Made by a program: the position numbers and the translations under genes | The notes under the pieces: model-generated | What the model saw: the letters and a program-made list of their open reading frames with translations, nothing else | Database searches by the model: none | What the model was told of the DNA's origin: nothing | Shown here: piece by piece, positions 29,332 to 51,443 of the stretch | How the letters are laid out: the number at the start of each line of letters is the position of its first letter | How positions within the stretch are numbered: position 1 is the first letter of the stretch | Source of the DNA: a bacterium | GTDB lineage: Bacteria > Patescibacteriota > Microgenomatia > Levybacterales > UBA12049 | DNA: 64,000 nucleotides | Assembly: GCA_021813145.1 (NCBI GenBank) | Contig: JAKALS010000003.1 | Location: 6,114 to 70,113 of the forward strand | Reading direction: 5' to 3'

Positions 29332-29996
29332 TGGCTTTCCCTCCCTTTAACAACAGGAGTATTGATGTTGTCCTCGGCTTGCCCTGTTTCTATAGAGCTT
29401 TCGTTGTATATTTCGTAAAAAAGCTTTACCAGTTCTTCTTTTCCTAGGGTTTTTGCTTTAAGGTTTAGTCTTGAAAGTTGTGAGTGAAGAGACTCCGCTT
29501 TTGAATGGAGCGCTGTTTTTGCCGACTGGGCGAAGGAAGCCGCGTCAAAAGACTTTTTGTTTACGCTTGCAGCGGCAGCGCCCGCTCCCTTTTCAAGATA
29601 AGAAAAAGGTAAAACAATATAGAATTTTTTGTCCAAAACGGTATTCACCTTCACGAGCTCCTGAACAAAATCCCTGTAGAGTCTTATTTGCTCGGCAAGC
29701 ATCTGGTTCTGCGTTTTTTTTGCTTCATTTTCTAATAACTTTAAATAAGAGGAAATATCAAGTTTTTTGCTTCTAATGAGGATTTGTATAGGGAAAGACA
29801 GCGAATTCAGAAGCGCAGCGTAGGAGTAAATTTTAGAATCCTGTTCTTCTGCCGATAAAAGGGCAAAATTTGTTGCCGTGACTTCTATTACAAGACAAGC
29901 GTTTCCTCCTGTTAAAATTACTACATCATCAACGATATCCTGTATTTCGGTAAACTTTTGCGTTGTCGCGTTGATTTTTCGGGCAGTTTTGGCCAT
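29328..29996 (-). CDS. T4SS-associated hypothetical protein
   Basis: Co-oriented and translationally coupled (overlapping stop/start) with virB4; no recognisable motif. Confidence 0.4.
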   Translation of the reverse strand: MAKTARKINATTQKFTEIQDIVDDVVILTGGNACLVIEVTATNFALLSAEEQDSKIYSYAALLNSLSFPIQILIRSKKLDISSYLKLLENEAKKTQNQMLAEQIRLYRDFVQELVKVNTVLDKKFYIVLPFSYLEKGAGAAAASVNKKSFDAASFAQSAKTALHSKAESLHSQLSRLNLKAKTLGKEELVKLFYEIYNESSIETGQAEDNINTPVVKGRESQ

Positions 29997-31258: not shown

Positions 31259-31365
31259 CTCTTAATTGTTATTTAATTGTATTTTCAGCATATAACGTGA
31301 AAAATTGCGTTTCAAGATTATCAAACTGGGTCAAAAAATATTGGAAATGAGGCTATCCGTGAAAA

Positions 31366-31680
31366 TTATGAACAATTTCCAAAACCGAAAGGTTTAGTAA
31401 TACAAGATGTTCCCGTAATTTGAGCTATTATAGCTATAATAGCGCCTGCAAGAAGTATTAGAATAAGCCCCAAAATGGCATAGGTAAGCGTTTTTCTTGC
31501 TCCCTCTACTTGTTTCGGGTCGCCGCCTGACGTTAAAAATTTTATTCCTGCGAAGATTATAAAAAAAACGGCGGTAACTCCGGCTAATCCTATAAGCCAA
31601 AAAACAAGATTATTGAAAACAACAGGAATACAATTTAGTGTTGCAACGCCGTTTTGAACGCAGTCTCCCCAAGGTTGCAT
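31366..31680 (-). CDS. VirB2/TrbC-like pilin paralog 1
   Basis: ~100 aa, helix-SGGD-helix architecture (FAGIKFLTSGGDPKQVEGARKTLTYAILGLILILLAG); Cys-containing N and C tails. Confidence 0.6.
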   Translation of the reverse strand: MQPWGDCVQNGVATLNCIPVVFNNLVFWLIGLAGVTAVFFIIFAGIKFLTSGGDPKQVEGARKTLTYAILGLILILLAGAIIAIIAQITGTSCITKPFGFGNCS

Positions 31681-31720
31681 GAAATAAGCGTAGCAAAAGG
31701 AAAACTAAAAGACAAGTGGG

Positions 31721-32128
31721 TTAACTGCAGGTTGGATTTGTAAGGCTTGGTATGCAGAATTTGCCCGTTAGCGGGTTTGAAATCCCTATAAGCTGGAAAA
31801 CTATATTTATGATGACAAATGCTGTTACGACTATTACTAACCCGATTATAGCTGCAACAATGTGTTTTCTTGCTGCGTCAACTGCCGCCTTATCCCCGCC
31901 CGAAAGAATCCATTTTATTCCTCCATAGATCAAAAAAGCTACCGCTACCAGTACCCCGACGATCAAAAGTAAGGATAAGATAAAAGATGGTATATTCCCA
32001 AGATTAACAGAAGTTGTAGGAGCGTAACCCGTCCCGGGGGCAATTGTAACCGTAATTTGCGCGAACGCATTTGAGGCTGCCAATAAATAGAACGATGCGG
32101 CAGAGATAAAACCCAGTGCTTTTTTCAT
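31721..32128 (-). CDS. VirB2/TrbC-like pilin paralog 2 (with signal peptide)
   Basis: Signal peptide MKKALGFISAASFYLLAASNAFAQ; core IYGGIKWILSGGDKAAVDAARKHIVAAIIGLVIVV; C-terminal CxxxxxxxxCS. Confidence 0.6.
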   Translation of the reverse strand: MKKALGFISAASFYLLAASNAFAQITVTIAPGTGYAPTTSVNLGNIPSFILSLLLIVGVLVAVAFLIYGGIKWILSGGDKAAVDAARKHIVAAIIGLVIVVTAFVIINIVFQLIGISNPLTGKFCIPSLTNPTCS

Positions 32129-32173
32129 TACTCTTTCTTGAGAATATAGTGTTTTTGCTGATTTGTCAAGAGC

Positions 32174-32509
32174 TTAGAACAATTTTCCTACTCCCAATAG
32201 TTGATAGACAAAATTGACAATGGTGCCCGCAAGAACAACGACTATAAGTCCGATTATCGAGAAAATAAGCCTTTGTCTTGCAGCCTGAATTTTTTGTTTG
32301 TCGCCGCCGGACATGGTCCACTGTATTCCGGCATAAATAATAAAAGCCATTGCTAAGACTACTGCGAGTAAAATTAAAATACTGCTCGCAATGGAAATAA
32401 GGGTAGTGCCGGTACTTATTCCGGCATCCGGTACGCCATTGGGCGGGGTGATGGTCACGTTTCCGTTGTTTCCCGGAACAGTTAACGCTAAAAGTTTCAT
32501 ATTATCCAA
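32174..32509 (-). CDS. VirB2/TrbC-like pilin paralog 3
   Basis: Core IYAGIQWTMSGGDKQKIQAARQRLIFSIIGLIVVVLAG. Confidence 0.6.
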   Translation of the reverse strand: MDNMKLLALTVPGNNGNVTITPPNGVPDAGISTGTTLISIASSILILLAVVLAMAFIIYAGIQWTMSGGDKQKIQAARQRLIFSIIGLIVVVLAGTIVNFVYQLLGVGKLF

Positions 32510-33572
32510 AGCCCGGAATGTGTAAAATATTAACCCCTATTATTTCAAGAATAACAAGAGAAAAAATAATAAACAATAGTCCCACTATTGCTGCGGTTAG
32601 TTGTTCCCTCGCTCCTTTTATCGCTTCCGGATTTCCTTGTGAGACCAAAAGCCTGTATCCGGATATTATTATCAGTAAAAGCGCCACTCCCCCCGAGAGG
32701 CTTAATATTAAGCCGAAAAGACTTGTTATAAGACTTTGGGGCTCTGTTCCTAACGTTCCAAGCGCGGTATCAACAGCAGTACAGGATCCTTTTACCGTAG
32801 AACCTAAATGGCAGGGTGAAGGCGGAGATTGATCTTGAGGGTTACCCGCGGAGTTAACCCCTCCCCCGTAAGTATCTACATAAAAAGTTGCATAACATGC
32901 CTGTTTTTCTAACAGGTGGGCGGGAGTGCACCCGTCGTTTATTTGCATATAATATCTTCCCGTTGAAAGCGGAACAAAACCAAATCCAGTACTATTCGTT
33001 AAATCTCTTCTTGTTACACAGCCGTCCCAAACGCTCCCCCCGTTGTTGTCATTAATGCGGATATAAGTGTGTAATTGATCGTCTGGATTGCCTGACGCAA
33101 GGGGACCTGTCATTTTTATTATTATATTATTGGTTGGCGTAAACGATTGGTTTAGGAATGAAATATTGCAACTTGTCCCTCCGCTTCCCGAGCCTGCGCT
33201 CCCAATCGTAAAAACAGGACTGTTGTTGCACAAATTATTTCCCGTGTCCGAAGAAAGAAAAAGCCCCACTTTGTAGGCTCCATTCCCAAAAGTTGAGGGA
33301 ACGGCGGCTGTCACTTTTCCGGAGGAGGCGGAGTAGGGGATTGGAACAGAATACCTAATGGTGTTAGTTCTTATAAAATTACCATTTAGGGAAACATAAT
33401 ATGTGAGATCCTTATTGTTTGCCAGATTCCCGTTTGTATCTATTGTAATTGTCCCGCCGTTATTAATACTGGAAGGACTGACGGAGCAGGCAAAAGAGGC
33501 GTAAGTTTTTTTAGGAAAAAATATTAAAAAAAGCAACAGTCCAAAAAAGACCAAAAGGAAAATTCTTTTCAC
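32502..33572 (-). CDS. secreted Gly/Ser/Asn-rich beta-type domain fused to C-terminal VirB2-like pilin module (candidate minor/tip pilin or adhesin)
   Basis: Signal peptide; C-terminus ISGYRLLVSQGNPEAIKGAREQLTAAIVGLLFIIFSLVIL shares the motif of the three pilins. Confidence 0.5.
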   Translation of the reverse strand: MKRIFLLVFFGLLLFLIFFPKKTYASFACSVSPSSINNGGTITIDTNGNLANNKDLTYYVSLNGNFIRTNTIRYSVPIPYSASSGKVTAAVPSTFGNGAYKVGLFLSSDTGNNLCNNSPVFTIGSAGSGSGGTSCNISFLNQSFTPTNNIIIKMTGPLASGNPDDQLHTYIRINDNNGGSVWDGCVTRRDLTNSTGFGFVPLSTGRYYMQINDGCTPAHLLEKQACYATFYVDTYGGGVNSAGNPQDQSPPSPCHLGSTVKGSCTAVDTALGTLGTEPQSLITSLFGLILSLSGGVALLLIIISGYRLLVSQGNPEAIKGAREQLTAAIVGLLFIIFSLVILEIIGVNILHIPGFG

Positions 33573-35012: not shown

Positions 35013-37604
35013 ATGACAGAGCAGCAACCAAGACCAATTAATTTGACAAACCAAACCAATCTAAATAGACTGGAAGGTGAAAGGATAATTATGCCTGAGC
35101 CGGGCGGACAGGAGCAGCAGGCTCCGATAACGCCAAGACAAGAAGAGGTAATACAAGAAGCAGTTAATCCGCCGGAAGGAATAGATAGGCCCGCAGAAGA
35201 AGCGGCAGGGATTTCTCCCAGGAGACCTGAACATAGGGAAAGCCATGCGGAAAGAGTGGAAAGAACATTCGAAGAGTTTACGAGAAGCATTCAAACCAAA
35301 GACACTCTTTCCCAGCTTGCAAGCGATACTCCGGATTTTGCAAAAACACCCGAGCTTAAAAAATTTGTAGATGAGCTTGAGCCCGGAGGAGATTTAATAA
35401 GATATTTTGCAGATTTTATTACAAACCCCGAGCAGGATTATGTAGACGAAGAAGGGGCACGCTATAGAATATCTACTGCTTCAAGAAGAGTCCTTTTTGA
35501 ATGGGCGCTTGAAAAAATCATAGGACTTCCCGAACAGGGGTCTCCAGAGGCGAGATATTCGATAGACTCCTTTCAGGCCAGAGAAAACCTTACCCTCCTA
35601 AAAGCCCTTAGCCTTTCCCGCTTTAATAATGAATTCTCAAGGTATATAGGAAGCATGATAGAAATCAGGGAAATGGCCCACGAACTTCGAAGAAACCTGA
35701 CCCAGGGCGATGCCTATAAAGAATTCATGCAGAAGGAGTTAAAGGCTCACGGAATTGATTTTATGAGAAACGAAGTCTCGGGAGTAAAAGACGTAATTTC
35801 ATTATACGAGCTTTTTACGGGTCTTAAGGTTTCGCAAAAAAGGGAATGGTTAAGCGCGGGAGACGTTGAGGATATAGACCACGAAGTTAAAGAGGCAATA
35901 ATGGCTCTTAAAGGAAAAAGCCAGATAAAGCAGGGAGAAAGGCCTTTGACGGATTGGGAAATAGATAGGGCGCTTTCTATAGGGAAAACACTTTTTGCAG
36001 GTACACAAAGGTTTGCAATGTATACCGTTTTGGGCTCTATTCCGACTCAAACGGCGGAAAGAGCAGGCTCGGTCCCTTACGAATATATAGTAAGAACACT
36101 TGCCCCTATTAAAATTACAGCTGCCAGGTATTTTACTTCTGCGGGACAAAGGTATCTTCAAGAAAGGATTCTCGATAATTATAAAAATGGCAAAAAAACG
36201 TCTTCCCTTTTTGGTATTGCCGAAAATTCCTGGGCGATGAACAACTTTAACGCATTTGATGTCGAAAGTCACAGTTGGAGGTCGCAGTTAATGTTTTTAG
36301 GGGATATGAGATTCAGGATAAAAACCGGGGAAGACGCAGAAGGAAACCCTGTTTATAAAGAAGGCAATGTTTTGGAATACTTTAACGACGAGCTGACTAG
36401 GTTGGCAGAGAGCACGGGAGCTGAATATGATCCCGCTTTAGGACTTGAGGGGGGTTCGGATAAAGAATTTTCCAATAACGAAAATGTTGCAGCCCTGGCT
36501 CTGGGGCAAAAACTTTACCTTTCAGTTTTGGGAAAATATTCACCTTTTAGCGAAGAGTTAAAAAGAGGAATATACCGAAAAATTGCAATTTACGATCCTC
36601 TTGCTTTTACTTCTCTTTCTCCCGAAGTGTTAAGCTCTCTTTCTCCCGAGCAAAAAAGAGTTTGGCAGGGAATGGCAATAAAAATGGGAATGGCAAATTC
36701 CATAAGGCTCAGGAAAGAAGGAGAAGAATATTTTGACGAACATGAACATAGGAAAACTTTGGATATAGACAGCCTGAAACAAGAGGCGGGAGAAACATAT
36801 GATTTTTCGACTAAAAAACTTAAAGATGTATCACAGATAAGTGATGACTATAAATATCAGATATTGTCCAAATACTTTTCCGAGGAGTACGGGAATGCAT
36901 TAACCGGAGAAGAGCAAGAGGTTCTAAAAACAATCATAAGAACTTCTTTAAGCGGAGAATTTGTAAATAATGTGGTCTCTGCGGAAAAACCTTTCACTTT
37001 TATAATCGACGATGCCCCCCATGTTGCCTGGAGCAAAACAAGGGACGGAGTTGGGGGTTTGGGAGACGAAAACCTTTTTAGGATTTTGCTTTCGGACCAG
37101 GGCAACCTTGCGGAATCCTGGGGTGCGCTAAACGGTTTGATTGAACATCCTCCGGCCGACCCGTCCAAGGCATTTATAACTTTCGTACAAAAAAGAGCAC
37201 TTGTTACGGGAAGAGGAGAGGCCCAAGGAAAACTGGAGCCGTTTTTAAACGCCTGGTTGGATATGGCTTCTACTTACGACCGTTCTAAATGGATAGGGGC
37301 AATAGAAAAAGCCACAAGGCACCCAAGGTCGGAAATGGAAAAATTTTACAGGGGGAATTATATTTCCATGGATGAACAGGATAAGTCGATATTTTTAGAC
37401 TCATTGGCCCAACAAGGAGCGATCGGGACAAATATAGCGAGAGGGCCTTCACAACTTGAAGAATTGAAGAAAAGAAATAAGGCTTATATTATAGATAACC
37501 TCAGGAGGTCCGCAAGGATGATATTGCTCCTTTTAGGTCCAACGCTGGGAATTCAATTTCTAAAACTTATATTTCCCGATGAGATAACAAAAGGACTTAA
37601 GTAA
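35013..37604 (+). CDS. large acidic hypothetical protein, divergent from the T4SS-like operon
   Basis: 863-aa ORF with no TM segments or recognisable catalytic motifs; true start may be internal. Confidence 0.4.
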   Translation: MTEQQPRPINLTNQTNLNRLEGERIIMPEPGGQEQQAPITPRQEEVIQEAVNPPEGIDRPAEEAAGISPRRPEHRESHAERVERTFEEFTRSIQTKDTLSQLASDTPDFAKTPELKKFVDELEPGGDLIRYFADFITNPEQDYVDEEGARYRISTASRRVLFEWALEKIIGLPEQGSPEARYSIDSFQARENLTLLKALSLSRFNNEFSRYIGSMIEIREMAHELRRNLTQGDAYKEFMQKELKAHGIDFMRNEVSGVKDVISLYELFTGLKVSQKREWLSAGDVEDIDHEVKEAIMALKGKSQIKQGERPLTDWEIDRALSIGKTLFAGTQRFAMYTVLGSIPTQTAERAGSVPYEYIVRTLAPIKITAARYFTSAGQRYLQERILDNYKNGKKTSSLFGIAENSWAMNNFNAFDVESHSWRSQLMFLGDMRFRIKTGEDAEGNPVYKEGNVLEYFNDELTRLAESTGAEYDPALGLEGGSDKEFSNNENVAALALGQKLYLSVLGKYSPFSEELKRGIYRKIAIYDPLAFTSLSPEVLSSLSPEQKRVWQGMAIKMGMANSIRLRKEGEEYFDEHEHRKTLDIDSLKQEAGETYDFSTKKLKDVSQISDDYKYQILSKYFSEEYGNALTGEEQEVLKTIIRTSLSGEFVNNVVSAEKPFTFIIDDAPHVAWSKTRDGVGGLGDENLFRILLSDQGNLAESWGALNGLIEHPPADPSKAFITFVQKRALVTGRGEAQGKLEPFLNAWLDMASTYDRSKWIGAIEKATRHPRSEMEKFYRGNYISMDEQDKSIFLDSLAQQGAIGTNIARGPSQLEELKKRNKAYIIDNLRRSARMILLLLGPTLGIQFLKLIFPDEITKGLK

Positions 37605-39203
37605 TTATCCTCTTCCAAACATTCTACCTATGAAGGCTCGTCCTAATTTTCGCTCGCCATATTCAGGAGGAGCGCCTTTTGTTGCCCCTTCCTTTAGTGC
37701 GATTACCTCTCTTGATGCAGCTATTGTGCCACCCACATTTCTTACTACATTGGTGGGATAGGCGACTCCGGCAGAAACAGCCTGGCCGATTGGACCAAGG
37801 TCAATCTTGGGAGCCTTAAAGGCAGCTTTGGTTATGTTGACAACATGCGGAGTGGTAAAGATAACACCCAGTGCTATTAATGCCCCAACCGTGTTTGTGG
37901 CTCCCGGGTTTCCTATTAAAGGAGGGACAAATTGCCCCGCCTGATAAGAACTTCCAAATGAGTCTATAAACAACTTTCCAATTAAAAACATTGCTATTGT
38001 TACTGGAAATGCCGAAAGATTTCCAAGCATGTCCCTGAGCCATGCGCTGAACCCGACATTAGAAGAGTTACCGGTCCCGGGAATTAAGCCTCCTATTATC
38101 CAAAAAGGCGCAAAAATTACGTCTACAAGAGTGAATATATAAGCAGAAAGAAGCGCAAACCAAAGCCTGAAAAGAGACCACAAAATGGCAACTGTTATAA
38201 CTATAAAAGCAAGTATTCCGCCTACGAATGCGAGTAGTCCGCCTATCACGGCCCCAAGAACTGTTCCCACGGGGTTTGTTAAAAGATCTACAAAACCGTT
38301 TCCGGCAGTTGTCTGGGCAGCTCCTCCATTGGAGAAAAGACTAAGAATGATGTTGGCAATAGAAGTTGAGGCGTTTGTGGCGACACCTAAAATGCCTCCA
38401 TTGTAAGCGTCATTTGCAAAATTAAGCGGTGTAGTGTAAAGATTTGACGTAAGGTGTCCGGCCTGAGCGCTTGCGCTGGCGGAATTTATGATATTAGGGT
38501 CTGCTTGGGTAAGCACATTTATAATAAGATAAATAGCTACCCACATTACATCTACCAACAAACCTGCTATCGCAAAAGAAAAAGTAACAAACAAAATACC
38601 TATTATTAGTTTTGGAATCTGATTTTGAATTGTCATTACGGTTCTGGGGTCGATTTTTATTCTAAGCATTATCGCAAAACCGATGATTATAAAAATCAAT
38701 ACAAAAATTAAATAGACGAGGTTTCTAAATACGATCCAGGCATTCATTAGGGGAGAGAGCTGATCAAATCCGGTTTCTTGTTTTACGGTTGCGGCATAAC
38801 TCGGCTTTGTAATCCCGAAATTGTCCCTTACATAGGCAATGAAGTCGCTTGTATGAACGGGCGGATTAAGAGTCATGGTAATAAGGCTACCCATAACCGC
38901 AATAGCCCCTCCGCTATTCTGGACAAATCCTATTTTTCCCGTTTTTTTGTCAACCCCTAAGCATTGAGCCTTAGGGTTTGAAGGATCAACTCCGGCAAGC
39001 TGGCAGCTTATTGCTGAGAGGGTTTGGATCATTACATTTTGAGTCAATGTATTCATGTTTTGAGGAACATCGCTATTGGTATTGGCATTTAGATAGGGAT
39101 TTGTTTGAGAAGAATCTGATTGGGCAAAGGTTAGGGTTTTAGCAAAAAACAGTCCCGTTATGAGAAGAAGTCCAATAAAAAACAAACGGACAGAGATTTT
39201 CAT
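37605..39203 (-). CDS. VirB6/TrbL-like polytopic membrane protein
   Basis: Signal peptide plus >=6 TM helices with Gly/Ala-rich segments; size and topology typical of VirB6; locus context. Confidence 0.5.
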   Translation of the reverse strand: MKISVRLFFIGLLLITGLFFAKTLTFAQSDSSQTNPYLNANTNSDVPQNMNTLTQNVMIQTLSAISCQLAGVDPSNPKAQCLGVDKKTGKIGFVQNSGGAIAVMGSLITMTLNPPVHTSDFIAYVRDNFGITKPSYAATVKQETGFDQLSPLMNAWIVFRNLVYLIFVLIFIIIGFAIMLRIKIDPRTVMTIQNQIPKLIIGILFVTFSFAIAGLLVDVMWVAIYLIINVLTQADPNIINSASASAQAGHLTSNLYTTPLNFANDAYNGGILGVATNASTSIANIILSLFSNGGAAQTTAGNGFVDLLTNPVGTVLGAVIGGLLAFVGGILAFIVITVAILWSLFRLWFALLSAYIFTLVDVIFAPFWIIGGLIPGTGNSSNVGFSAWLRDMLGNLSAFPVTIAMFLIGKLFIDSFGSSYQAGQFVPPLIGNPGATNTVGALIALGVIFTTPHVVNITKAAFKAPKIDLGPIGQAVSAGVAYPTNVVRNVGGTIAASREVIALKEGATKGAPPEYGERKLGRAFIGRMFGRG

Positions 39204-39317
39204 CCTAAAATCAGTTTGTCCTATTTTGTGGCTTATGTCAAGCGCAGCAGTCGTATTGGCGGAGAGAGGCGGGATTTGGTTCGACTATGCTCACCATAAA
39301 CTTCTCATCCCTTGGTG

Positions 39318-39405
39318 CGGAGGGGGCGGGATTCGAACCCGCGATATCCTTGCGGATATACCTGCTCTCCAAGCAAGCGCACTAGACCAACTATGCGACC
39401 CCTCC
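39318..39405 (-). tRNA. tRNA-Ser (anticodon GGA)
   Basis: Hand fold: acceptor GGAGGGG/CCCCTCC, 3-bp D stem, anticodon loop TTGGAGA, long variable arm with GCAA loop, T-loop TTCGAAT, discriminator G. Confidence 0.85.
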
Positions 39406-39406
39406 A

Positions 39407-39447
39407 AACTAGATGCTAGAAACTAGATACTAGATGTTAGATGTTTC
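39407..39447. repeat. 7-nt tandem repeat (Nctagat)x5 abutting tRNA-Ser and overlapping the nudix 3' end
   Basis: actagatgctagaaactagatactagatgttagatg read directly. Confidence 0.85.
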
Positions 39448-39866
39448 TGAGCCTCTTTCCAGACCTCTTTGTCCGATTTATAGGTTAATCTGTTTTCAAC
39501 TTCTTCCGGTTTTATCCACTCAACATTTTCCATTTCCCAATCATGCTCACTAATGTCTCCCGATAAATATTCCATTAAGTAATAATATACGGTTTTTTTT
39601 ATTTTCTCGCCCTCCAGAACGTACCAATACTGAACAGGACTTAAAGCCTTTATTATTTTACCGCTAACACCTGTTTCTTCTTTTACTTCCCTTACCGCCG
39701 TTTGTTCTTTTCCCTCTCCTTTTATGTGGTCTCCGATAATACCTTTAGGAAAAACCCAACCGTGGTGTTGGGAATGCTGAGACACCAAGATCAGGATTGC
39801 TGATTGCTGATTACTGATTACTGATTTTTTAAATACGACTCCGCCGGCAGAAAATTCAAATCTCAT
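39423..39866 (-). CDS. NUDIX hydrolase
   Basis: Nudix box GEGKEQTAVREVKEETGV; GGVVFKK N-terminal strand. Confidence 0.85.
   Translation of the reverse strand: MRFEFSAGGVVFKKSVISNQQSAILILVSQHSQHHGWVFPKGIIGDHIKGEGKEQTAVREVKEETGVSGKIIKALSPVQYWYVLEGEKIKKTVYYYLMEYLSGDISEHDWEMENVEWIKPEEVENRLTYKSDKEVWKEAQKHLTSSI
39793..39830. repeat. 7-nt tandem repeat (Nctgatt)x5 inside the nudix 5' coding region
   Basis: aggattgctgattgctgattactgattactgatttttt read directly. Confidence 0.85.
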
Positions 39867-39881
39867 AATTCTTACTTACTG

Positions 39882-39968
39882 CGGAGAGGGTGAGATTCGA
39901 ACTCACGGTCGCCTTTCGACGACAGCGGTTTTCGAAACCGCCGCACTAGTCCGCTATGCGACCTCTCC
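39882..39968 (-). tRNA. tRNA-Ser (anticodon CGA)
   Basis: Hand fold: acceptor GGAGAGG/CCTCTCC, anticodon stem GCGGT/ACCGC, loop TTCGAAA, long variable arm, T-loop TTCGAAT, discriminator G. Confidence 0.85.
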
Positions 39969-39973
39969 GTTTG

Positions 39974-40046
39974 CGTGCCCGAGAGGAATCGAACCTCCAA
40001 CCGCCTGGACCGCAACCAAGTGTTCTATCCGTTGAACTACGGGCAC
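39974..40046 (-). tRNA. tRNA-Arg (anticodon GCG; unusual for bacteria)
   Basis: Hand fold: acceptor GTGCCCG/CGGGCAC, D stem GTTC/GAAC, anticodon stem CTTGG/CCAGG, loop TTGCGGT, T-loop TTCGATT. Confidence 0.75.
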
Positions 40047-40088
40047 TTGCAAAGTGTATTTTACTTTATTGGAGGATTCTTAGCAAAC

Positions 40089-40667
40089 CTAAATAGTTCC
40101 TTCGAGGGGAAAATTCCTTGTAAGCCAGTCTGCGGCTTTGTCCATAAAAGTGGGTTTTATATATTCTCGGTAGGGAAGATAAGGCAAAAGTATACTTTTT
40201 ACATGGTCTTCGCTTACATCTCCGAGCGTTATCGTTAGCTCTCCGGGTATAAAAGCATGGGTTCTTATGTGTAAGACCCTGACTCCCTGTCTGTTCCAAA
40301 AATAAAAGTCGTAGAGCTCCTGCCATAAGAAAAAATGGTCTTCTATTGTTACCCCCTCCGTACTTATTCTGAAGTGAAAATCCCTGGGTGGTACGCTTGC
40401 CAGGGCAAAAGCTACAAAGACAAGCGATAAAACAACAAGCATAAGCATATATTGCGAAAAAAGAAAAAGAATAATTTCTACGAAAAGCATAATAAGAAGA
40501 CTCGTTAAATAATATTGTTTTGTCCTTTTTTTAAAAGGTCTTCCCGGGGCCGTCCATGCAAGAAGAGTTTTAACCTGCGGAACTTCTTCGGTTGTTTCTT
40601 TAATTTCCTTTGATGATTCTTTTTGCGGAGTTTCTTTTTTAACTTCAGGTGCTTTTTGGACAGTCAT
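40089..40667 (-). CDS. membrane protein with bacterial PH (bPH_2/YdbT-like) domain
   Basis: Two TM helices followed by FHFRISTEGVTIEDHFFLWQELYDFYFWNRQGVRVLHIRT. Confidence 0.55.
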   Translation of the reverse strand: MTVQKAPEVKKETPQKESSKEIKETTEEVPQVKTLLAWTAPGRPFKKRTKQYYLTSLLIMLFVEIILFLFSQYMLMLVVLSLVFVAFALASVPPRDFHFRISTEGVTIEDHFFLWQELYDFYFWNRQGVRVLHIRTHAFIPGELTITLGDVSEDHVKSILLPYLPYREYIKPTFMDKAADWLTRNFPLEGTI

Positions 40668-40763
40668 AATTTAACTTTATATTAAAGATACCTTTAAGTC
40701 AACGAAAGGAACTTATCTACAGCAGAATGTCCTTGTCGAAGGGCGGATTCGAGTTAGACTCGG

Positions 40764-40850
40764 CGGAGAGGGTGGGATTCGAACCCACGGTGGCATTGCT
40801 GCCACGATGGTTTTCAAGACCATTGCACTAGTCCGCTATGCGACCTCTCC
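40764..40850 (-). tRNA. tRNA-Ser (anticodon TGA)
   Basis: Hand fold: 5' half identical to Ser-CGA; anticodon stem ATGGT/ACCAT, loop CTTGAAA, long variable arm, T-loop TTCGAAT. Confidence 0.85.
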
Positions 40851-40904: not shown

Positions 40905-42311
40905 TTATCTGCCATTTTTAAGCGGGTTTATAAAATCTATACTTGTAAAAAGTAGTAAAAGTGCAATTATTCCCGCATTTTTTGTTCTGTCTTTCAATTT
41001 TTGAACCTCTGCTATTTTTTTCTTCCTTTCTTCAAATTTGTCATCGGTTTCTCCCTTTTCTTGTTTAGGCGCTTCTGCAAGAATACCGCTTAATGCTTTT
41101 TCCAAATTCCCAACCCTAAAAGCCTCTCTTATGGCGGTTGCATGTTCTGTTGTTATTTTTCCGGAAGAAAGAAGCTCCCAATACTCATTAGTTATTGTAT
41201 CTATACCTTTTCCACCCGTTAGATCAAATAGCATTTGAATCTCTTCAAGAGGAGCTTTTTGAGCTTGAAATCCCGTAAGCCTAAGGCTAACTTCTTCCTT
41301 TTGTTTTTCAAGCTTAAGCCTTAAATCTTCCGCTAAGCCTTCCCGCTCCAGACTTTTATCAATTTCTTCAAGAAGTTTTTTTGTCTCCTCGATGCTCTTA
41401 TTTGCGTTTGCCAGGTTTTGGGCTACTGTTTCGGGATCTATATCCTGTCCGCTTGTTATTATTTTCACAAGGGCTTGTCCGTCTATTACCGTTTTTCCCG
41501 CTGCGATTTCCCGGATTCCGGTCAAACTTTGTATTTGTGACTGCTCTTCCGGCGTTAATTCTTTTCCGTCTTCGGGTTTTGGCATCTGGGAGTCTATAAA
41601 CGCTTCGATATCGGAGCTTGTTATAAAACCGGCAGCTTGAGCTGCTTCTTCTATTGTTTTTTGTGTTTTATCTAAATCTACTCCCTCCCCGAAAAATTGT
41701 TCTTCCGCCCGCTGAGCATTTTCACCGTCCGAGAACTGTGATGCATAATATTCGAAAACTGTTTTTGCAGCTCCTTCAAATTCTCCGGAAATCCTTTCCT
41801 GTTCGGAAGCAACCTGTCCGTCAATAAGCCTGTCTATCGGGATCTCTAGATTTGCGCTGTTGTCCATTGACTGGACAATTCCTATTTCCAAACCGTTTTT
41901 ATTCGCAAAGCCTACAAGCCTTGTTACCCTAATTGTTGTTCCGGAGTCGGTTTTTACAAAAAGGGGTTTTCCTTTTGTTATCTCAATTGTGGTCGGCTTT
42001 TGGGTATTTGGATCTTTGAAGAAACTTCCCTCTCCGTCTCCGAGCGCTTTAGCATCTCCTCTCATCTCAACAAGCTTTTTAAGCACAATTATATGGCCTT
42101 GTCCGTCTGCTTCTAGTTGTTCGTCCGTTTTGGATGTTGCAGCCAAGGTTTCAACAAGCCTTCGGCCTACAATTTCGGCATCTTTTTTAGCTCCATTTAT
42201 CCAGTTTCTTTGTTCTTGTTGTTTTGTTGTTTCTGAAGGGAGTGGAGTAGGAGCTTGTTCTTGGTGGGCTGCCGTTTCGGAAGGAGGCAGCAACGGGCCT
42301 ATTTCACTCAT
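40905..42311 (-). CDS. acidic coiled-coil protein with C-terminal TM anchor (tail-anchored), hypothetical
   Basis: ORF extends to 42389 but probably starts at MSEIGPLL (~42311); C-terminus NAGIIALLLLFTSIDFI. Confidence 0.4.
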   Translation of the reverse strand: MSEIGPLLPPSETAAHQEQAPTPLPSETTKQQEQRNWINGAKKDAEIVGRRLVETLAATSKTDEQLEADGQGHIIVLKKLVEMRGDAKALGDGEGSFFKDPNTQKPTTIEITKGKPLFVKTDSGTTIRVTRLVGFANKNGLEIGIVQSMDNSANLEIPIDRLIDGQVASEQERISGEFEGAAKTVFEYYASQFSDGENAQRAEEQFFGEGVDLDKTQKTIEEAAQAAGFITSSDIEAFIDSQMPKPEDGKELTPEEQSQIQSLTGIREIAAGKTVIDGQALVKIITSGQDIDPETVAQNLANANKSIEETKKLLEEIDKSLEREGLAEDLRLKLEKQKEEVSLRLTGFQAQKAPLEEIQMLFDLTGGKGIDTITNEYWELLSSGKITTEHATAIREAFRVGNLEKALSGILAEAPKQEKGETDDKFEERKKKIAEVQKLKDRTKNAGIIALLLLFTSIDFINPLKNGR

Positions 42312-42359
42312 GAGATTATAGTAGTTGAAATATTTTGTCAAATCAACTAATAATAAATT

Positions 42360-45254
42360 ATGGCCGAGGCAACAGCAGCGGATGTTCATGTTATAACCGA
42401 GAAGGGACGTTCCCCGGTGGAGCCTTCAACTGGATCGCAACCGGCAGTTCAACCGGAGGGTCCGAGAGTCCAGATCCCAAGACACGAAGTGAGAGAAGGT
42501 TTAATGGGACTTCCTGCAATGGGTCCCGGAAATAGGAGCGTAACGGAAGGAGTACGACCCTCGGAAACGGTTGTTCTAAAATCGGAAGTTGTTACGGGTC
42601 TTCAGGATTTTGCTATTGCCTATGCGCAAAAATTAATTGACATGCAGGGTCTTGAGGTTATGGTAGGCGGAAATAAGGTAAATGCCTATGATGCCATGAA
42701 ACGGCAGCAGTCCGCCCTTGGCATCTCCTATTTAGAAGATGAAGCGCTGCTGGCATCTTTTACGGAGGATAATAACGGAAAAAGGCAATTAAAATCTCCC
42801 GATCAGGTAAGGGAAATTATTTCCTCTCATCCGCAAATGATGGAAAATATAATGGTTGTTGCAGAAAGATACGCAAGGGACACGCTGGCTGCCTTAGGGT
42901 TAAGGGCGCAGATGCAAAGACCCGGTTCGAGAACCGACCTCCGTGACGTAGCTGAAATTATTGATTTTCCGACGGACCAGGGAAAAGTGAGAGAAGTTCT
43001 GAATAGGCTAAGCGATGCTTTAAGAAAAAGAGAATCAAGCGGAGGAAGAATCGGGCCTAGAACTTCCCTGCGTGCCGCAATTGAGGACCTTGAGCCGATA
43101 GCCGCAGGAGGAGCAGCTTTTGGTGGCGTATCCGGCTTAATTGTCGGTGGAGCTCTAGGAAGCTTTCCCGGTGCAATAGCAGGAGCGCTTAAAGGAGCGA
43201 CGGCGGGCGCAGCGGGCGGAACAACTCTTGGGGCAACAGTCGGAAGAACATTTAGAGAGGGTCCAAGATTAATATTGACCAAGGACCAAGATATAGCGGG
43301 AGAGGCTGCTAGGGCCGGGGAAGATTTAAGAGCTAAATATTTATTGGATGTGGATCCGATACATCCCGAACGCTCGACGGCAGCGGGAGATGCAAAAAAC
43401 GAGGCTGTTGGAATAATAATGCTTAGATGGGAATATATGGCAAACCTTGGAGTACCAAGAGAAAGAATGGATGCGCTTTCCATAGATTTTTTAAACAATC
43501 CAGATGGTATAAGGCCAGAAGAGTCCAGGCTTAAGCTACAAAACGAAATTTTTCACCGATTTGAAGCGAATGGAGGGATGGCGGGAGGTCTTACTCCCAC
43601 TCAAAGGAGAGACATATATAGAAATTCACAGCAGGAGGCAATAATGGGAAGGTTTGGAGATTATTTTAGAGAAAGACAGCGGGAAGGAAGGGACAGGGGA
43701 CAACTTTTGGCAGATGCAATTACCGCAAGGGGAGAAGGCGGAACAGCTTTAAGATCGAGAATATCAGGAGCCGAGGAAGAACAGCAAAAACTTCAGGCGG
43801 ACAAAGCAAGCCTTGAGGGGAATGGGCAGTCAGTTGCCGGGTATAGGGGTAAAGTAAAAGAAGTAGAAACCGCGAAGTCGGATCTTTCGGAATTGGTAAG
43901 CAGAACGGTTGTTCCCGGTGCTGCCGCTTTTGCATCGGCGGAAGATGCAATAGGCGCAATAGAAAGGACAATTTCCGATACGGGGGGGCCTGCAAATATT
44001 ACAATTTTCCTCGACGGTCGAAGCCATAATATAGGAAATATTGCACAAAGGGAGCAGGCGGCAGATGCCGCTTTCGTAAGCGAACAGACAAGAATTGCAG
44101 GACTTCCTCCTAAAGCTCAGGATAAAGCAATAGAAGCAGCAAATAATATGTATGAGAGGAGAATGAGGCCTATACATGAAGATTCTCAAAAATTAGATCA
44201 GGCAATTTTAAAAATAAAGGAATTAAGTCAAAGGGCAAAAGCCCTGGAGGAGCATGCTTTAGCGTCTCCGGAGGTTACGGCGGGCGCTAAAATAACAGAG
44301 GATATTGCAGCTGCCGAAACAACTCTTACGGGATGGGGTATCCCTCAGACTACAATTGATGCCGGTGATTATGCGGCAATTTTAGCAGCGGTAAATACGC
44401 AGAATGCGGCTAATCCCGCTAACGGTTGGCCGGAAAGTGAAGACCGTGTTGCAGAAAATAGGCTTATGGTAAGAAGAGCAATCGTCCAGGCAAGGGCCAG
44501 AGAAGCAGAAAGGAATGATGCGGCTCTGGGGCCAATGGAAGCAGATTTTAACACTGTCCATGCAAGAGGTATAACAGTTGAACAGTTGACAATTTTAAAT
44601 TTAGACGAACTTGAGAGGAGAAATGTTGCCGCAGGCGCTCCGGTAGCCGGAGCAAGAGCGGAAGCTGAACGAGCCCAGGCTTGGGCAAAAGGAAAACTGA
44701 AATATTTAGAGGATTCCATTAAAGAAGAAAACAGCAGAATTCAAACAGCAGAATCGGCCCAGGCAAGAATTATCAGGAATGTCGATATGGCGACAGAGAT
44801 AGCCCAACTTACAATGGTAAAGGAGATATATGATAACAGAGGCAGAGTTAAATCAAAGGCAGCAGAGGCATACTTTTTGAGTGATCAAAGAGCCGTCCTT
44901 GAGGATGTAGGACACGTTACGGCAGGAAGAGAAGGGTACACGGCTGCGGAACAAGCTTCAAATCTTCCAAGGAACGTGTTGGAAGTTTTAAATATATTAA
45001 CCGATTATCAGAATGCCGCCGATAGAAACGGAGCTTTTCAGCAGATTTGGAAAAATCTGGGCTCTAACCCCGACCTTTTAATGACAAGACTGGAAAATGC
45101 ATTCGGAGTAAGAAGCAGAGATATTGATGCCTTTGCAAGAAGACTCAGGAATCAATTAAGAACAAGGGCTACAGCAGGCTCGGATTTTGGTAGAACGGTT
45201 GGCGAAAATGCCGTAAACGAATTTACTGAATGGGGGCTTAGTATAAGTACATGA
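42360..45254 (+). CDS. large Ala/Arg/Glu-rich hypothetical protein with glycine-zipper hydrophobic segment; compositionally atypical (higher G+C)
   Basis: 964-aa ORF; GGAAFGGVSGLIVGGALGSFPGAIAGALKGATAGAAGG segment; long helical A/E/R/Q-rich C-terminal half. True start uncertain (divergently overlaps 40905-42389). Confidence 0.45.
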   Translation: MAEATAADVHVITEKGRSPVEPSTGSQPAVQPEGPRVQIPRHEVREGLMGLPAMGPGNRSVTEGVRPSETVVLKSEVVTGLQDFAIAYAQKLIDMQGLEVMVGGNKVNAYDAMKRQQSALGISYLEDEALLASFTEDNNGKRQLKSPDQVREIISSHPQMMENIMVVAERYARDTLAALGLRAQMQRPGSRTDLRDVAEIIDFPTDQGKVREVLNRLSDALRKRESSGGRIGPRTSLRAAIEDLEPIAAGGAAFGGVSGLIVGGALGSFPGAIAGALKGATAGAAGGTTLGATVGRTFREGPRLILTKDQDIAGEAARAGEDLRAKYLLDVDPIHPERSTAAGDAKNEAVGIIMLRWEYMANLGVPRERMDALSIDFLNNPDGIRPEESRLKLQNEIFHRFEANGGMAGGLTPTQRRDIYRNSQQEAIMGRFGDYFRERQREGRDRGQLLADAITARGEGGTALRSRISGAEEEQQKLQADKASLEGNGQSVAGYRGKVKEVETAKSDLSELVSRTVVPGAAAFASAEDAIGAIERTISDTGGPANITIFLDGRSHNIGNIAQREQAADAAFVSEQTRIAGLPPKAQDKAIEAANNMYERRMRPIHEDSQKLDQAILKIKELSQRAKALEEHALASPEVTAGAKITEDIAAAETTLTGWGIPQTTIDAGDYAAILAAVNTQNAANPANGWPESEDRVAENRLMVRRAIVQARAREAERNDAALGPMEADFNTVHARGITVEQLTILNLDELERRNVAAGAPVAGARAEAERAQAWAKGKLKYLEDSIKEENSRIQTAESAQARIIRNVDMATEIAQLTMVKEIYDNRGRVKSKAAEAYFLSDQRAVLEDVGHVTAGREGYTAAEQASNLPRNVLEVLNILTDYQNAADRNGAFQQIWKNLGSNPDLLMTRLENAFGVRSRDIDAFARRLRNQLRTRATAGSDFGRTVGENAVNEFTEWGLSIST

Positions 45255-47413: not shown

Positions 47414-47420
47414 TTTGGTG

Positions 47421-47510
47421 CGGAGGAGGTGGGATTCGAACCCACGCGAGCTTTTTAGAGCTCAAGGGTTTAGCAAACCCTCGCAATGGACCTAGCTATG
47501 CGACTCCTCC
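47421..47510 (-). tRNA. tRNA-Ser (anticodon GCT)
   Basis: Hand fold: acceptor GGAGGAG/CTCCTCC, anticodon stem AGGGT/ACCCT, loop TTGCTAA, long variable arm, T-loop TTCGAAT, discriminator G. Confidence 0.85.
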
Positions 47511-47534: not shown

Positions 47535-48101
47535 TTAAAGGTCAAAATCGTATGAGTATATTTTACCCGGTGTGTGTTCAAAAGAGCACATTTCGTCCAC
47601 GGACAAGTGCTCAAAATACCTTCTCATTGGCCTAAGCGAATTTCCGTGAGCGGAAATAAAGACAACGTCGTTTTCTTTAAAGGTAGGAAGAACATCGTTA
47701 AGAAACTCAAGGACTCTTTTTTCCACCATCTGTATGCTTTCGCCTCCGGGCGGTGCAACATCGTAAGAGCGGTGCCAGAGCTTATAAAGTTCGGGATTCT
47801 CTTTTTCTACTTCGTCTTTATTTTTTCCCGTAAGATCTCCATAGTCCCTTTCCTTAATTCTTGCGTCCGTAGTTATTTCTACATTTTTATGCCAGGGGTT
47901 TAATACGAGATCAAGAGTATGCTGCGAGCGGATAAGATCTGACTGGTAAGCTTTTGTGACTTTCTCATTTTTCAGTTTTTCGCCTATACCCTTGGCCTCT
48001 TCCATTCCTTCGGAAGTTAAGTCCGTTTGCCTAAAACCGGAGAAGGTATGTTCTTTATTGTCGAGCGTCTGACCGTGGCGGAATATAAAGATTTTGGCCA
48101 T
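47535..48101 (-). CDS. histidine phosphatase (phosphoglycerate mutase family)
   Basis: MAKIFIFRHGQT RHG catalytic motif at the probable true start; ORF-track N-terminal extension to 48224 is unlikely. Confidence 0.75.
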   Translation of the reverse strand: MAKIFIFRHGQTLDNKEHTFSGFRQTDLTSEGMEEAKGIGEKLKNEKVTKAYQSDLIRSQHTLDLVLNPWHKNVEITTDARIKERDYGDLTGKNKDEVEKENPELYKLWHRSYDVAPPGGESIQMVEKRVLEFLNDVLPTFKENDVVFISAHGNSLRPMRRYFEHLSVDEMCSFEHTPGKIYSYDFDL

Positions 48102-48156
48102 AAAGCCAGTATATAGTATATTGTTTCCAGTATCCAGTATAAGCCAAACCTGGCAC

Positions 48157-48180
48157 GAAAAACCCCGCCTTAGGCGGGGT
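48157..48180 (-). terminator. rho-independent terminator of tmRNA
   Basis: Minus strand CCCCGCC-TAA-GGCGGGG followed by TTTTT immediately 3' of the tmRNA end. Confidence 0.75.
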
Positions 48181-48185
48181 AAGTG

Positions 48186-48555
48186 TGGAGATGTCCGAGA
48201 GTGACTCGGAGTCCAAGAAAACAATTTAAAAAAATTCTACAAGCTTATCCGGTTTATTAAAGTCACCCTGCTTCTTTCCAACCGGAGGGAAACGAAACAA
48301 AGCCAAGGTTTGATAAGTTCAAATAAGGAACAAACCCTTTTCCTTATTGTTCTCCCGGCTAAAGTTATGCCTTAAAAGTTCCACCGAGAAAGAGCTTAAA
48401 AGACAGATCGATAAGCTTAAGCATTTAATGCATAAGCGAATTGACCGCCAGAATATGAATTTCTAGCATTTATATTTTGATTATGTTTTACGGCTGTTAA
48501 TCAAAGCCGGCTTGCGTTTTTTAAAGAGCGAATCTTGTCGATGCGATGCATCCCC
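48186..48555 (-). ncRNA. ssrA: tmRNA (SsrA), ~370 nt
   Basis: Minus strand 5' GGGGAUGCAUCGCAUCGACAAGAUUCGC (cf. GGGGcUGauucuGGAUUCGAC). 3' end is GGAC-UCCGA-GUCACUC-UCGGA-CAUCUCC-A: a T-arm followed by an acceptor strand pairing with GGGGAUG including the G3-U70 wobble and discriminator A. Internal tag-like frame ends ...GGQFAYALNA-UAA. Adjacent smpB and its own terminator. Confidence 0.8.
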
Positions 48556-48599
48556 AATTGCCATGAATTATACCAAAATTGAATTCAAAATGTCAAGTT

Positions 48600-49040
48600 C
48601 TAGCCTCGGCTTCCAAGTTCATGTTCGAGCTCTCTTTGGATATCCTTTTTCTTTATGGACTGCCTTTTTTCATATTTTTTCTTCCCTTTTCCGAGTCCTA
48701 ACTCTACTTTTATAAAGTGGTTTTTTGTATATAGTGAAATAGGTACAACGCTCAGGTTTTCGCCCTCCATTTTGGACTTTAAAGACAGGATTTCTTTTTT
48801 ATGTAACAAAAGTTTTCTTGTTCTTCTCTCGTCGTATCCTTCGGTTCTGGCATTTTGGTAAGGAAAAACTTTAGAGTTTACCAGATATGCCTCGCTTCCT
48901 ATTATTTTTACAAAGCTCCCGCTGATATCTGCCTGTCCGAGCCTTATTGCTTTTACTTCCGAACCCGAAAGGTTTATTCCGGCCTCAAAACGGTTTGTTA
49001 TTTCGTAATCGTAAAATGCTTTTCTGTTTGTTATTTTCAT
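48600..49040 (-). CDS. smpB: SsrA-binding protein SmpB
   Basis: MKITNRKAFYDYEI...GINLSGSEVKAIRLGQADISGSFVKI typical SmpB; C-terminal basic tail. ORF-track extension to 49145 is unlikely. Confidence 0.88.
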   Translation of the reverse strand: MKITNRKAFYDYEITNRFEAGINLSGSEVKAIRLGQADISGSFVKIIGSEAYLVNSKVFPYQNARTEGYDERRTRKLLLHKKEILSLKSKMEGENLSVVPISLYTKNHFIKVELGLGKGKKKYEKRQSIKKKDIQRELEHELGSRG

Positions 49041-49613: not shown

Positions 49614-51443
49614 TTATTTAAGATTAATTTGGTAAACTTTTCCTCCCGAAAGAATATTAATTATTTTGCTTGATTCGAGCACTTCAAAGTCGTTTGCATT
49701 TTTTAGTATCGGTGATTGGTATTGGGCAACATAATTCCCGTTTTTATCCAGAACTACAATTCTTGAGTTTCCCCTGTCCAATACGTAGACATTATTAAAA
49801 TCGGCGGTTGTATAAATTCTTGTGGGAGAAGAGAACGGCTTATCAAGGCCCGAGACGGTAAGATTTTCGGGATTTCCCCTGAGGAATTTTTCCACCGAGC
49901 CGTTTGAAAAAAGAACCCAGATAGAACCGTCTATCGTCATTGCGTCTGCATTTGAAAGGTCAGGAGAAATTCCGCCGAAATAGTTTGTTTTAGTATATCC
50001 CCCCGAAGTTTCAACAAATTTATCTATCTGTTTGTTATCTTTGTCCAAAACATAAATATTTCCATAATAGACACTTAGTCCCCCTATGTTTTTAGGAAGG
50101 TCGGAGGATTTAATTATTACTTTTGCCGTGCCGCCGGAAGAGGAGACTGAGGATAGTCCGTTTGAGTCTATGTAATAAAAGGTATTGTTATCCTGTGCAA
50201 AATAAGAAGCCTGTGGATTTTTGATTTCCAATGATAAGATAGGACTTGTCGAGGCATCGACTTGGCTTGCCGAAGTCGAATTTACTCCCGAAGATGAATT
50301 TAGCGCCAGATTTACTTTTGCAAGAAGGGCAAGTATTTGTTTTTCCTCGGCCGAATTTTTCGGAAATTCTCCTTTTCCGTTTTCAAGCATCGTTTGAGCT
50401 GCTTGAAAACTGTCGTGAGCCAGGCTTTGATTAAGGCTCAGTAAATCTTCCCCTTCGTTGTATTTTTTCTGAGCCTGTGGATAAACTTGGGCGAAAAGAG
50501 CCTGTGTTTTTTGATCGTTCTGTTTTTTTGTGGCAAGATAAATGCTTGCGACAAACACGACTGCAATTATTACGGCAATTGTCAGGAATATCTTCTTGGA
50601 ATGGTTAATGTTATGAATTTTAGGAAGTTTTAAGTTTGAGACGGGTAGGGTAAACGGGAGCTTGAACCTCGAGAAATAAGAAGTCGATTTTACCTCAACG
50701 GGAGCCTGGGGAAAATAATCGTCGCTTTTTGCCGGTTCTTCTTTTTGTTCTTTCTGGTCTTTTTCTTCATCTTTGGTTTTCCCGGATCCATGTTCTTCTC
50801 CTATCGCAGTTTCTTCATCTGCTGTTTCGGTAAGAAGTGCTTTATAAGAAGTAATCACAGCCGCTGCTCCCGACGCTTTTTCGTTCGAGTGAAGCGTTGG
50901 AGCAAGTGTTTCTGCGATTTCACTGGGGGGGAGATGGTCAATCGAGGAAGATATAACTTCGGAAGGGAAAATATCCGCAAATTGAATAGTTTGAAGGACT
51001 ATGACATCGTTGTCTTGTAAAAATCCCGAGGCGGCTTTGATGGAGGAAGAGGGGGCTTCTTCTATGTGAAGAATTGTCCCGTATTTATCCCCTCTTTTTA
51101 TGTCAACTTTCCCTTTGCCTAGAACAAAAGCATAAAATATATTGTTGACGACTGCTCCGATTACGAAAGAGCAAAATATATTTTCCGGGATTTTTTTTGA
51201 GGTTACCAAAACGGCATTTTTAATGGATTCAAGGTCTTTTGTTTCCAAGCTGTAGTATTCTTGTTCCAGCTTGTCGAGTATCTCTTTTCCCAAAATATTC
51301 AAGAGGTCTTTTTCCTCCGTTTCCTCCTGATTTTTTTCAAGTGAAAGAACGGCAAAAAGCTTACCGGCATTGTAAGCCTGGGCCCAGGAATAAAGAGTGG
51401 GAGTTGCTACTATTTTTGCGAATGTTACGTTCGTGTCGGCCAT
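49614..51443 (-). CDS. bitopic membrane protein with cytoplasmic N-terminal domain and extracellular beta-propeller-like (NHL/YVTN-type) repeats
   Basis: TM IFLTIAVIIAVVFVASIYLA; repeated YVLDKDNKQIDKF / YVLDRGNSRIVVLDKNGNYV motifs. Confidence 0.45.
   Translation of the reverse strand: MADTNVTFAKIVATPTLYSWAQAYNAGKLFAVLSLEKNQEETEEKDLLNILGKEILDKLEQEYYSLETKDLESIKNAVLVTSKKIPENIFCSFVIGAVVNNIFYAFVLGKGKVDIKRGDKYGTILHIEEAPSSSIKAASGFLQDNDVIVLQTIQFADIFPSEVISSSIDHLPPSEIAETLAPTLHSNEKASGAAAVITSYKALLTETADEETAIGEEHGSGKTKDEEKDQKEQKEEPAKSDDYFPQAPVEVKSTSYFSRFKLPFTLPVSNLKLPKIHNINHSKKIFLTIAVIIAVVFVASIYLATKKQNDQKTQALFAQVYPQAQKKYNEGEDLLSLNQSLAHDSFQAAQTMLENGKGEFPKNSAEEKQILALLAKVNLALNSSSGVNSTSASQVDASTSPILSLEIKNPQASYFAQDNNTFYYIDSNGLSSVSSSGGTAKVIIKSSDLPKNIGGLSVYYGNIYVLDKDNKQIDKFVETSGGYTKTNYFGGISPDLSNADAMTIDGSIWVLFSNGSVEKFLRGNPENLTVSGLDKPFSSPTRIYTTADFNNVYVLDRGNSRIVVLDKNGNYVAQYQSPILKNANDFEVLESSKIINILSGGKVYQINLK

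Follow-up and report, generated by a model that had tools for sequence, protein, structure and literature searches.

The question raised by this locus is whether an RNA gene located beside smpB, with a T-loop and a tag end that both depart from the familiar pattern, represents a functional transfer-messenger RNA (tmRNA) gene, and whether those departures are peculiar to this gene or shared by its lineage. The window, i.e. the whole 64,000-nt stretch of DNA that was analysed, very probably carries an ssrA (tmRNA) gene that is functional in its host, an uncultured Levybacteria-like bacterium of the CPR (Patescibacteria); the function is deduced from conservation.

Identification of an ssrA gene adjacent to smpB

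The following features, given in coordinates of the window, define the gene and its immediate surroundings:

48186..48555, minus strand: ssrA, one-piece tmRNA body of 370 nt, with G1 at 48555 and the discriminator A at 48186 (RF00023)
48549..48555, minus strand: 5' strand of the acceptor stem, GGGGAUG, carrying the G3 of the alanine identity pair G3·U70 (7/7 pairs with 48193..48187)
48186..48193, minus strand: CAUCUCC, which forms the 3' side of the acceptor stem and includes U70, followed by the discriminator A at 48186 (sequence and pairing)
48600..49040, minus strand: smpB, encoding the partner protein of the tmRNA, 146 aa (Pfam PF01668 SmpB, E 3.4e-49, residues 3-142)
48567..48596, minus strand: promoter-like site TTGACA-18 nt-TATAAT with an extended -10 TG (12/12 consensus matches; consensus match only)
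48162..48180, minus strand: intrinsic-terminator-like hairpin ACCCCGCC-TAA-GGCGGGGT of eight pairs, seven of them G-C, then TTTTT (consensus match only)

The search with the Rfam tmRNA covariance model (RF00023) that had been suggested in the initial annotation returned a significant match at 48555..48183 on the minus strand (99.8 bits, with the gathering score at 47; E 8.9e-38), extending without truncation over model positions 1-374 of 374 and including the downstream pseudoknot region. A nhmmer profile built from 15 Rfam-called tmRNAs, among which the ssrA of the window itself, detected the gene with an E-value of 6.6e-76. Within the single, continuous RF00023 match the layout was shown to be standard (5' acceptor strand, tag, pseudoknots, T arm and 3' acceptor strand), and the T arm comprises an unbroken 17 nt, indicating that it contains no intron. 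The alignment to RF00023 passed over the T-loop as a local end, and the score is lower than that of the canonical CPR tmRNAs L008 and L072 (160-176 bits). No second tmRNA reaching the Rfam gathering score was found in the 64-kb window.

The two ends of the molecule had been read by hand in the initial annotation, and both readings match the minus-strand sequence exactly: the 5' end reads GGGGAUGCAUCGCAUCGACAAGAUUCGC from 48555 (the read GGGGAUGCAUCGCAUCGACAAG likewise starts at 48555), while the 3' end, GGAC-UCCGA-GUCACUC-UCGGA-CAUCUCC-A, finishes at 48186. The proposed acceptor pairing, including G3-U70, forms at all seven positions, and all 47 collected tmRNAs (described below) show an intact acceptor stem that contains G3·U70 and leads into A. 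At the foot of helix 2, the UCGAC...GGAC junction is present as well. The discriminator was correctly read as A, and as it is followed by CAC, CCA is not encoded, again as had been stated.

The gene lies 45 nt downstream of smpB on the same strand. The promoter-like site follows directly on the stop codon of smpB and leaves 11 nt to G1, a spacing that would give a leader of a few nucleotides for removal by RNase P. The hairpin that had been described as a terminator was located at 48180..48162, where it is indeed followed by a T run. An ORF at 47535..48224 (229 aa), which overlaps the 3' end of ssrA and the terminator, was rejected as an artefact of an upstream TTG; the gene downstream of ssrA truly starts with MAKIFIF (at about 48100) and encodes a member of the histidine phosphatase family, branch 1 (Pfam E 3e-39).

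Homologous tmRNAs and genomic setting

To collect relatives, the SmpB sequence of the window was searched against one genome per species and then against metagenomes (+80 loci). The closest SmpB relatives (64-89% identity) were encoded by genomes named Levybacteria, Levyibacteriota or simply Patescibacteria. Using Rfam and nhmmer, tmRNA genes were identified in 72 of the collected loci, mostly just downstream of smpB, and 47 unique full-length tmRNAs served as the comparison set. The earlier proposal of a tmRNA beside smpB was thus borne out by the covariance model, by the adjacency to smpB and by homologous tmRNAs in related genomes. On the basis of the SmpB relatives and the tmRNAs beside smpB, the window is a segment of the chromosome of a Levybacteria-like CPR bacterium.

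The ssrA and smpB genes are neighbours on opposite strands in seven relatives (L001, L099, L079, L093, L008, L119 and L138), indicating that the neighbourhood is retained and the orientation is not. In L003 (MFNZ01000027.1, Levybacteria), which possesses smpB, no tmRNA was found by Rfam or nhmmer within 4 kb on either side. Three loci (L006, L007 and L013) derive from third-party assemblies labelled 'uncultured Gammaproteobacteria'; for L006 and L007 this label appears to be wrong, given their Levybacteria-like SmpB (64-68% identity) and tmRNA. For L013, SmpB identity falls to 44%, and the tmRNA is similar to further CPR-like members of the set.

The window also carries rpoD, dnaG, ruvB and dnaA-dnaN. 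With dnaA (23796-25136, plus strand) followed by dnaN (25265-26371, plus strand), the origin region of chromosome replication probably lies within the window. The minus strand carries a T4SS/conjugation-like cluster (27385-33572), whose products are a P-loop ATPase of the TraG/VirB4-like type (27385-29331), a member of the PrgI family (29999-31258) and a protein with a T4SS pilin domain (32505-33572). All four tRNA-Ser isoacceptors (gga, cga, tga and gct) and one tRNA-Arg(gcg) are located within ~8 kb on the minus strand (39317-40850 and 47420-47510), and five large ORFs (494-964 aa; 35013-37601, 37608-39203, 40908-42389, 42360-45251 and 49617-51443) had no Pfam match at E<=1e-5.

Tag reading frame and tag ends

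The coding part of the gene and the pseudoknot that precedes it were assigned as follows:

48417..48467, minus strand: tag frame ARNSYSGGQFAYALNA, 16 codons, with the resume codon GCU at 48467..48465 and the stop codon UAA at 48419..48417
48477..48509, minus strand: PK1, CGGCU/AGCCG and UUGAUU/AAUCAA, just upstream of the resume codon (Rfam structure line and alignment of relatives)

The resume codon, which the initial annotation had proposed to locate by alignment, was placed at 48467..48465, where RF00023 aligns GCU to the consensus resume codon. The corresponding column opens a tag frame in 47/47 unique tmRNAs, and ARAGORN, when applied to ssrA with a repaired T arm (see below), reported a coding part at 89-139 with an identical peptide, providing an independent placement of the resume codon. 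One stem of PK1 is marked in the structure annotation that accompanies the Rfam alignment, and in the alignment of relatives G-C is replaced by A-U within CGGCU/AGCCG in L002, L004, L046 and L007. The internal frame quoted earlier was therefore read correctly, though not all of it is tag: only its last 16 codons are, and the upstream residues LTAVKHNQNIN are the in-frame translation of PK1 and of the A-rich spacer.

The tag ends in L-N-A and so lacks the L-A-A end of a ClpXP-type ssrA degron. This end had been singled out as non-canonical, and it is indeed present in the sequence, but it is not peculiar to this gene, as tag ends vary across the lineage. Members of the clade mostly end in AYA or AFA (e.g. 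...FAYAYA, ...NYAFA and ...ALAYA), with further ends including ALSA (L001), ALTA (L006), FAQA and even YAYN or YVN; ALAA was found in L099 only. As read from these predicted tags, LNA is one variant in a tmRNA set that does not obey the LAA rule of Escherichia coli, and the ends AYA, AFA and LNA suggest that the protease involved differs in specificity from ClpX of E. coli, which follows the LAA rule. A survey of the window's 30 largest ORFs revealed no gene for Clp, Lon or FtsH, which for a 64-kb segment says little.

Tag length also varies. In seven relatives (L079, L093, L081, L099, L106, L087 and L006) the tag comprises 29-35 residues, including an inserted segment of helix-like appearance (e.g. 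AGENRIAALKRERDSILAQLFGVRQPALAFAQA), compared with 12-21 residues in most other members of the clade and 27 in L001.

A predicted six-pair T stem closing a five-base loop

The T arm and the region corresponding to the D-loop were assigned as follows:

48194..48210, minus strand: T arm (helix 12), stem UCCGAG/CUCGGA (6 pairs), loop UCACU at 48204..48200 (covariation, RNAalifold)
48537..48548, minus strand: reduced D-loop analogue CAUCGCA, then the conserved UCGAC; a single G where the canonical form has GG

A canonical T-loop combined with GG in the D-loop is a conserved trait of tmRNAs, albeit not a defining one. The canonical T-loop motif (U54, U55, C56, R57 and A58 in a loop of seven bases) and the D-loop GG are both absent from ssrA, and G53-C61, which is usually conserved, is represented by A-U. 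The initial annotation had described GUCACUC as a non-canonical T-loop; the letters are as it reported, yet they are better explained by G54-C60 acting as a sixth pair that closes UCACU. Both of the oddities that it flagged, the T-loop and the LNA end, are real, and both proved to be typical of the lineage and not peculiar to this ssrA. Other arms of the clade include UCGAG-CUCACUG-CUCGA, UCGAG-UUCAUUG-CUCGA, UCCGG-GCCAUUC-CCGGA and GCCGA-GUCACUC-UCGGC.

Covariation of the T arm was examined across 16 distinct arms of the clade, assuming a six-pair stem and a five-base loop. In this register 99% of the cells are paired and compensatory changes occur at all six pairs, although the arm sequences are related, such that few independent changes underlie the covariation and the sixth pair requires at least two or three events. 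The covariation score was not reached by any of 500 shuffles (0/500), slid registers of the arm were at most 49% paired, and RNAalifold independently predicted the six-pair stem. The initial annotation had made its proposal depend on T-arm pairing in homologous genomes, and the compensatory changes in relatives back that pairing. The sixth pair, at tRNA positions 54:60, is U·G in six arms, G-C in five, C-G in four and a mismatch in one. The canonical partnership 54:58 was rejected for the clade, with 31% standard pairs and U:A never occurring.

Position 58 is always C or U, and never A, in the variant arms of the clade. When all 47 tmRNAs were considered, 54:60 was pairable in 24/25 seven-base loops without A58, compared with 0/13 of those with A58; moreover, all 13 tmRNAs with a D-loop GG retain A58, and 28/28 tmRNAs without A58 have no GG. 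The five-base loop of the clade conforms to the consensus U-C-A-Y-N. Retained in the variant are U55-C56-A57, compatible with a U-N-R turn, and the D-loop G equivalent to G19; lost are the pair U54·A58 and the first G of the D-loop, equivalent to G18. By eye, no covariation between the D-loop and the T-loop was seen within the clade, in which the single G and C56 are invariant. The comparison shows that the T arm of this lineage, as predicted from aligned sequences, consists of a six-pair stem and a U-C-A-Y-N loop, which replace the five pairs and seven-base T-loop of the canonical form.

An unlikely alternative is that the tmRNA is functional and its T arm still consists of five pairs and a seven-base loop, in which positions 54 and 60 are complementary without being paired, for example in a T-loop-like fold with other contacts. 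Such a fold would accord with the arm length, which at 17 nt equals that of canonical tmRNAs, with the retention of U55, C56 and A57, and with the continued detection by ARAGORN of three clade members whose loops start with UUCA. It would also accommodate the clade member L006, which has C:A at 54:60, and the six-base loops of L113, L014 and L128, which cannot form the extra pair. However, 54:60 alternates between G-C, C-G and U·G and is paired in 15/16 distinct arms, pairability at this position separates loops without A58 from those with A58 in the counts given above, and a T-loop fold needs U54·A58, whereas clade members with variant loops never have A at 58. The six-pair stem is hence the reading adopted here.

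The loops that fall outside the five-base scheme were found in L113 and L087, both of the clade, and in L014 and L128, both labelled Saccharibacteria. Together with L038 and L156, these form a group of six mostly CPR-like tmRNAs with six-base T-loops (GUCACA, UUCAAC, CUCACU, UUCAAU and UUCAAA), indicating that T-loop length varies within the collection.

Beyond the rarity of the loop, nothing points to a sequencing or assembly error. The identical arm, UCCGA-GUCACUC-UCGGA, is present in an unrelated metagenome contig (L093), and L005 and L002, from other studies, have arms that are nearly identical; an error is effectively refuted by these independent assemblies.

The five tRNAs of the window have canonical UUCGAAU or UUCGAUU loops in GGUUCGAAUCC-type arms, indicating that the change is restricted to the tmRNA.

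Detection by ARAGORN

Applied to the window, ARAGORN reported five tRNAs and no tmRNA. This result was considered as evidence against ssrA and dismissed as a false negative, as detection was restored by introducing a canonical T arm in silico: with the arm replaced by ..GGUUCGAAUCC.., ARAGORN reported a 371-nt gene with the same G1 and an end one base past the discriminator. Neither single T-loop substitutions nor the D-loop GG alone rescued detection. The failure is thus attributable to the non-canonical T-loop/D-loop. Recall was 14/47 unique tmRNAs (most from CPR-like genomes), only three of which belong to the variant clade, and the loops of these three begin with UUCA. Rfam/Infernal, unlike ARAGORN, recovered all tmRNAs. 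Pipelines that rely on ARAGORN only will consequently report Levybacteria-like genomes as lacking a tmRNA, constituting a systematic blind spot in annotation.

The ARAGORN failure, the RF00023 score below that of canonical relatives and the departure from a T-loop motif that has been described as highly conserved (PMC1168896) might be taken to indicate a decaying, non-functional relic, in which T-loop and tag end reflect lost selection. This is very improbable: the architecture is maintained in dozens of independently assembled relatives with compensatory changes at every pair of the T stem, the acceptor stem with G3·U70 and the open tag frame are intact throughout the 47 tmRNAs, an intact smpB adjoins the gene, a consensus promoter and terminator flank it, and the window holds no second tmRNA at the Rfam gathering score. 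With all parts that define a tmRNA present, the gene would be expected to operate by ordinary trans-translation, and it is itself ordinary apart from the T-loop that has been rebuilt across its lineage.

Proposed mechanism and implications

The steps outlined here follow the established biology of the tmRNA family (reviewed in PMC3968760). The gene would be transcribed from its own promoter just past smpB, RNase P would trim the short 5' leader, and the 3' end would be trimmed and receive CCA from the CCA-adding enzyme. Alanyl-tRNA synthetase would recognize G3·U70 and A73 and charge the molecule with alanine, upon which the tmRNA, with SmpB and EF-Tu, would enter stalled ribosomes. Translation would resume at GCU, add (A)ARNSYSGGQFAYALNA and halt at UAA, thereby freeing the ribosome and marking the protein for degradation. 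In the elbow, a plain extended hairpin would take the place of the T-loop motif, with loss of the U54·A58 platform and the intercalating G18, and the elbow may be held by a G19-C56 type contact alone, in which the U-turn presents C56 to the remaining D-loop G.

For a broader reading, taken as a whole, the chances appear evenly divided: an entire CPR lineage (Levybacteria-like and perhaps including some Saccharibacteria-labelled members) may perform trans-translation without the T-loop motif, employing a six-pair stem and UCAYN in its tmRNA while its tRNAs remain canonical, and would thereby have dispensed with the pairing of U54 and A58, with the site at which G18 intercalates and, for the majority of members, with U54 itself.

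The consequences for T-loop modification would be direct, in that a G or C at position 54, the former being present in the ssrA of the window, would preclude m5U54. TruB depends on a canonical T-loop, which renders Psi55 doubtful in the variant. The window's 30 largest ORFs include no TrmA, TrmFO or TruB; for 64 kb this sample says little. If the broader reading is true, the T-loop motif and m5U54 (and probably Psi55) would be dispensable for RNase P processing, CCA addition and alanylation of tmRNA, as well as for EF-Tu/SmpB binding and ribosome transit, constituting a natural experiment. A T-loop that has been replaced in the tmRNA and not in the tRNAs would reveal which parts of the tRNA elbow a tmRNA needs, and the variant T arm offers a defined form for in vitro testing. 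The ssrA of the window moreover points to the presence of trans-translation in a reduced genome.

Comparison with known systems

A sixth T pair has been mentioned before: in a comparative paper from 2005, the tmRNA of Dehalococcoides (D. ethenogenes) was noted to be able to form one (PMC1168896). That remark concerned a single sequence without covariation support, and is compared here by description only. The 2025 tmRNA database (PMC11915505) lists 5252 tmRNA identifications of standard form for 6765 genomes of Patescibacteria. It also describes 111 taxa whose genomes were in the majority tmRNA-less after ARAGORN and BLAST, and for which Rfam hits then supplied candidates; tmRNAs of the kind described here have thus probably been catalogued already. 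A remodelled T arm is not discussed in that paper, nor in PMC4131195 and PMC3968760 (both 2014) or PMC13011429 (2026, on Patescibacteria introns). No description of the variant was found in the papers searched, an absence that is no proof of novelty, and the predicted T arm is best regarded as a modest structural observation that those papers do not describe.

Among the collected sequences, the Saccharibacteria-labelled L040, L014 and L128 share with ssrA the UCAC loop core, the absence of A58 and of the D-loop GG, and the failure to be detected by ARAGORN. L040 also has G-C at 54:60, as in ssrA, whereas L014 and L128 differ in possessing the six-base loop CUCACU. The tags of these tmRNAs (ANLFKKPALAFA) differ from that of ssrA, and the labels of third-party assemblies are unreliable.

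The canonical CPR tmRNAs of Woesebacteria (L008, L138 and L136) resemble ssrA in their phylum-level group, smpB-ssrA neighbourhood, length and low G+C content, and their tags likewise have non-LAA ends (AYLS, LAYA and FAYA). In contrast to ssrA, they possess GGUUCGAUUCC T arms and a D-loop GG, mostly encode CCA, score 160+ bits and are detected by ARAGORN.

Compared with the standard tmRNA (E. coli SsrA), ssrA agrees in the acceptor stem (7 bp, G3·U70, discriminator A), the UCGAC...GGAC junction, PK1 ahead of a GCN resume codon, a short tag with the stop codon in helix 5, a T arm and an adjoining smpB. It differs in its predicted T arm (six pairs and UCAYN, compared with five pairs and UUCRANY), in the absence of U54·A58, in having A-U for G53-C61 and one D-loop G instead of GG, in not encoding CCA, and in a tag of 16 residues that ends in YALNA, compared with ANDENYALAA. 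With these differences, ssrA is a member of the standard tmRNA family.
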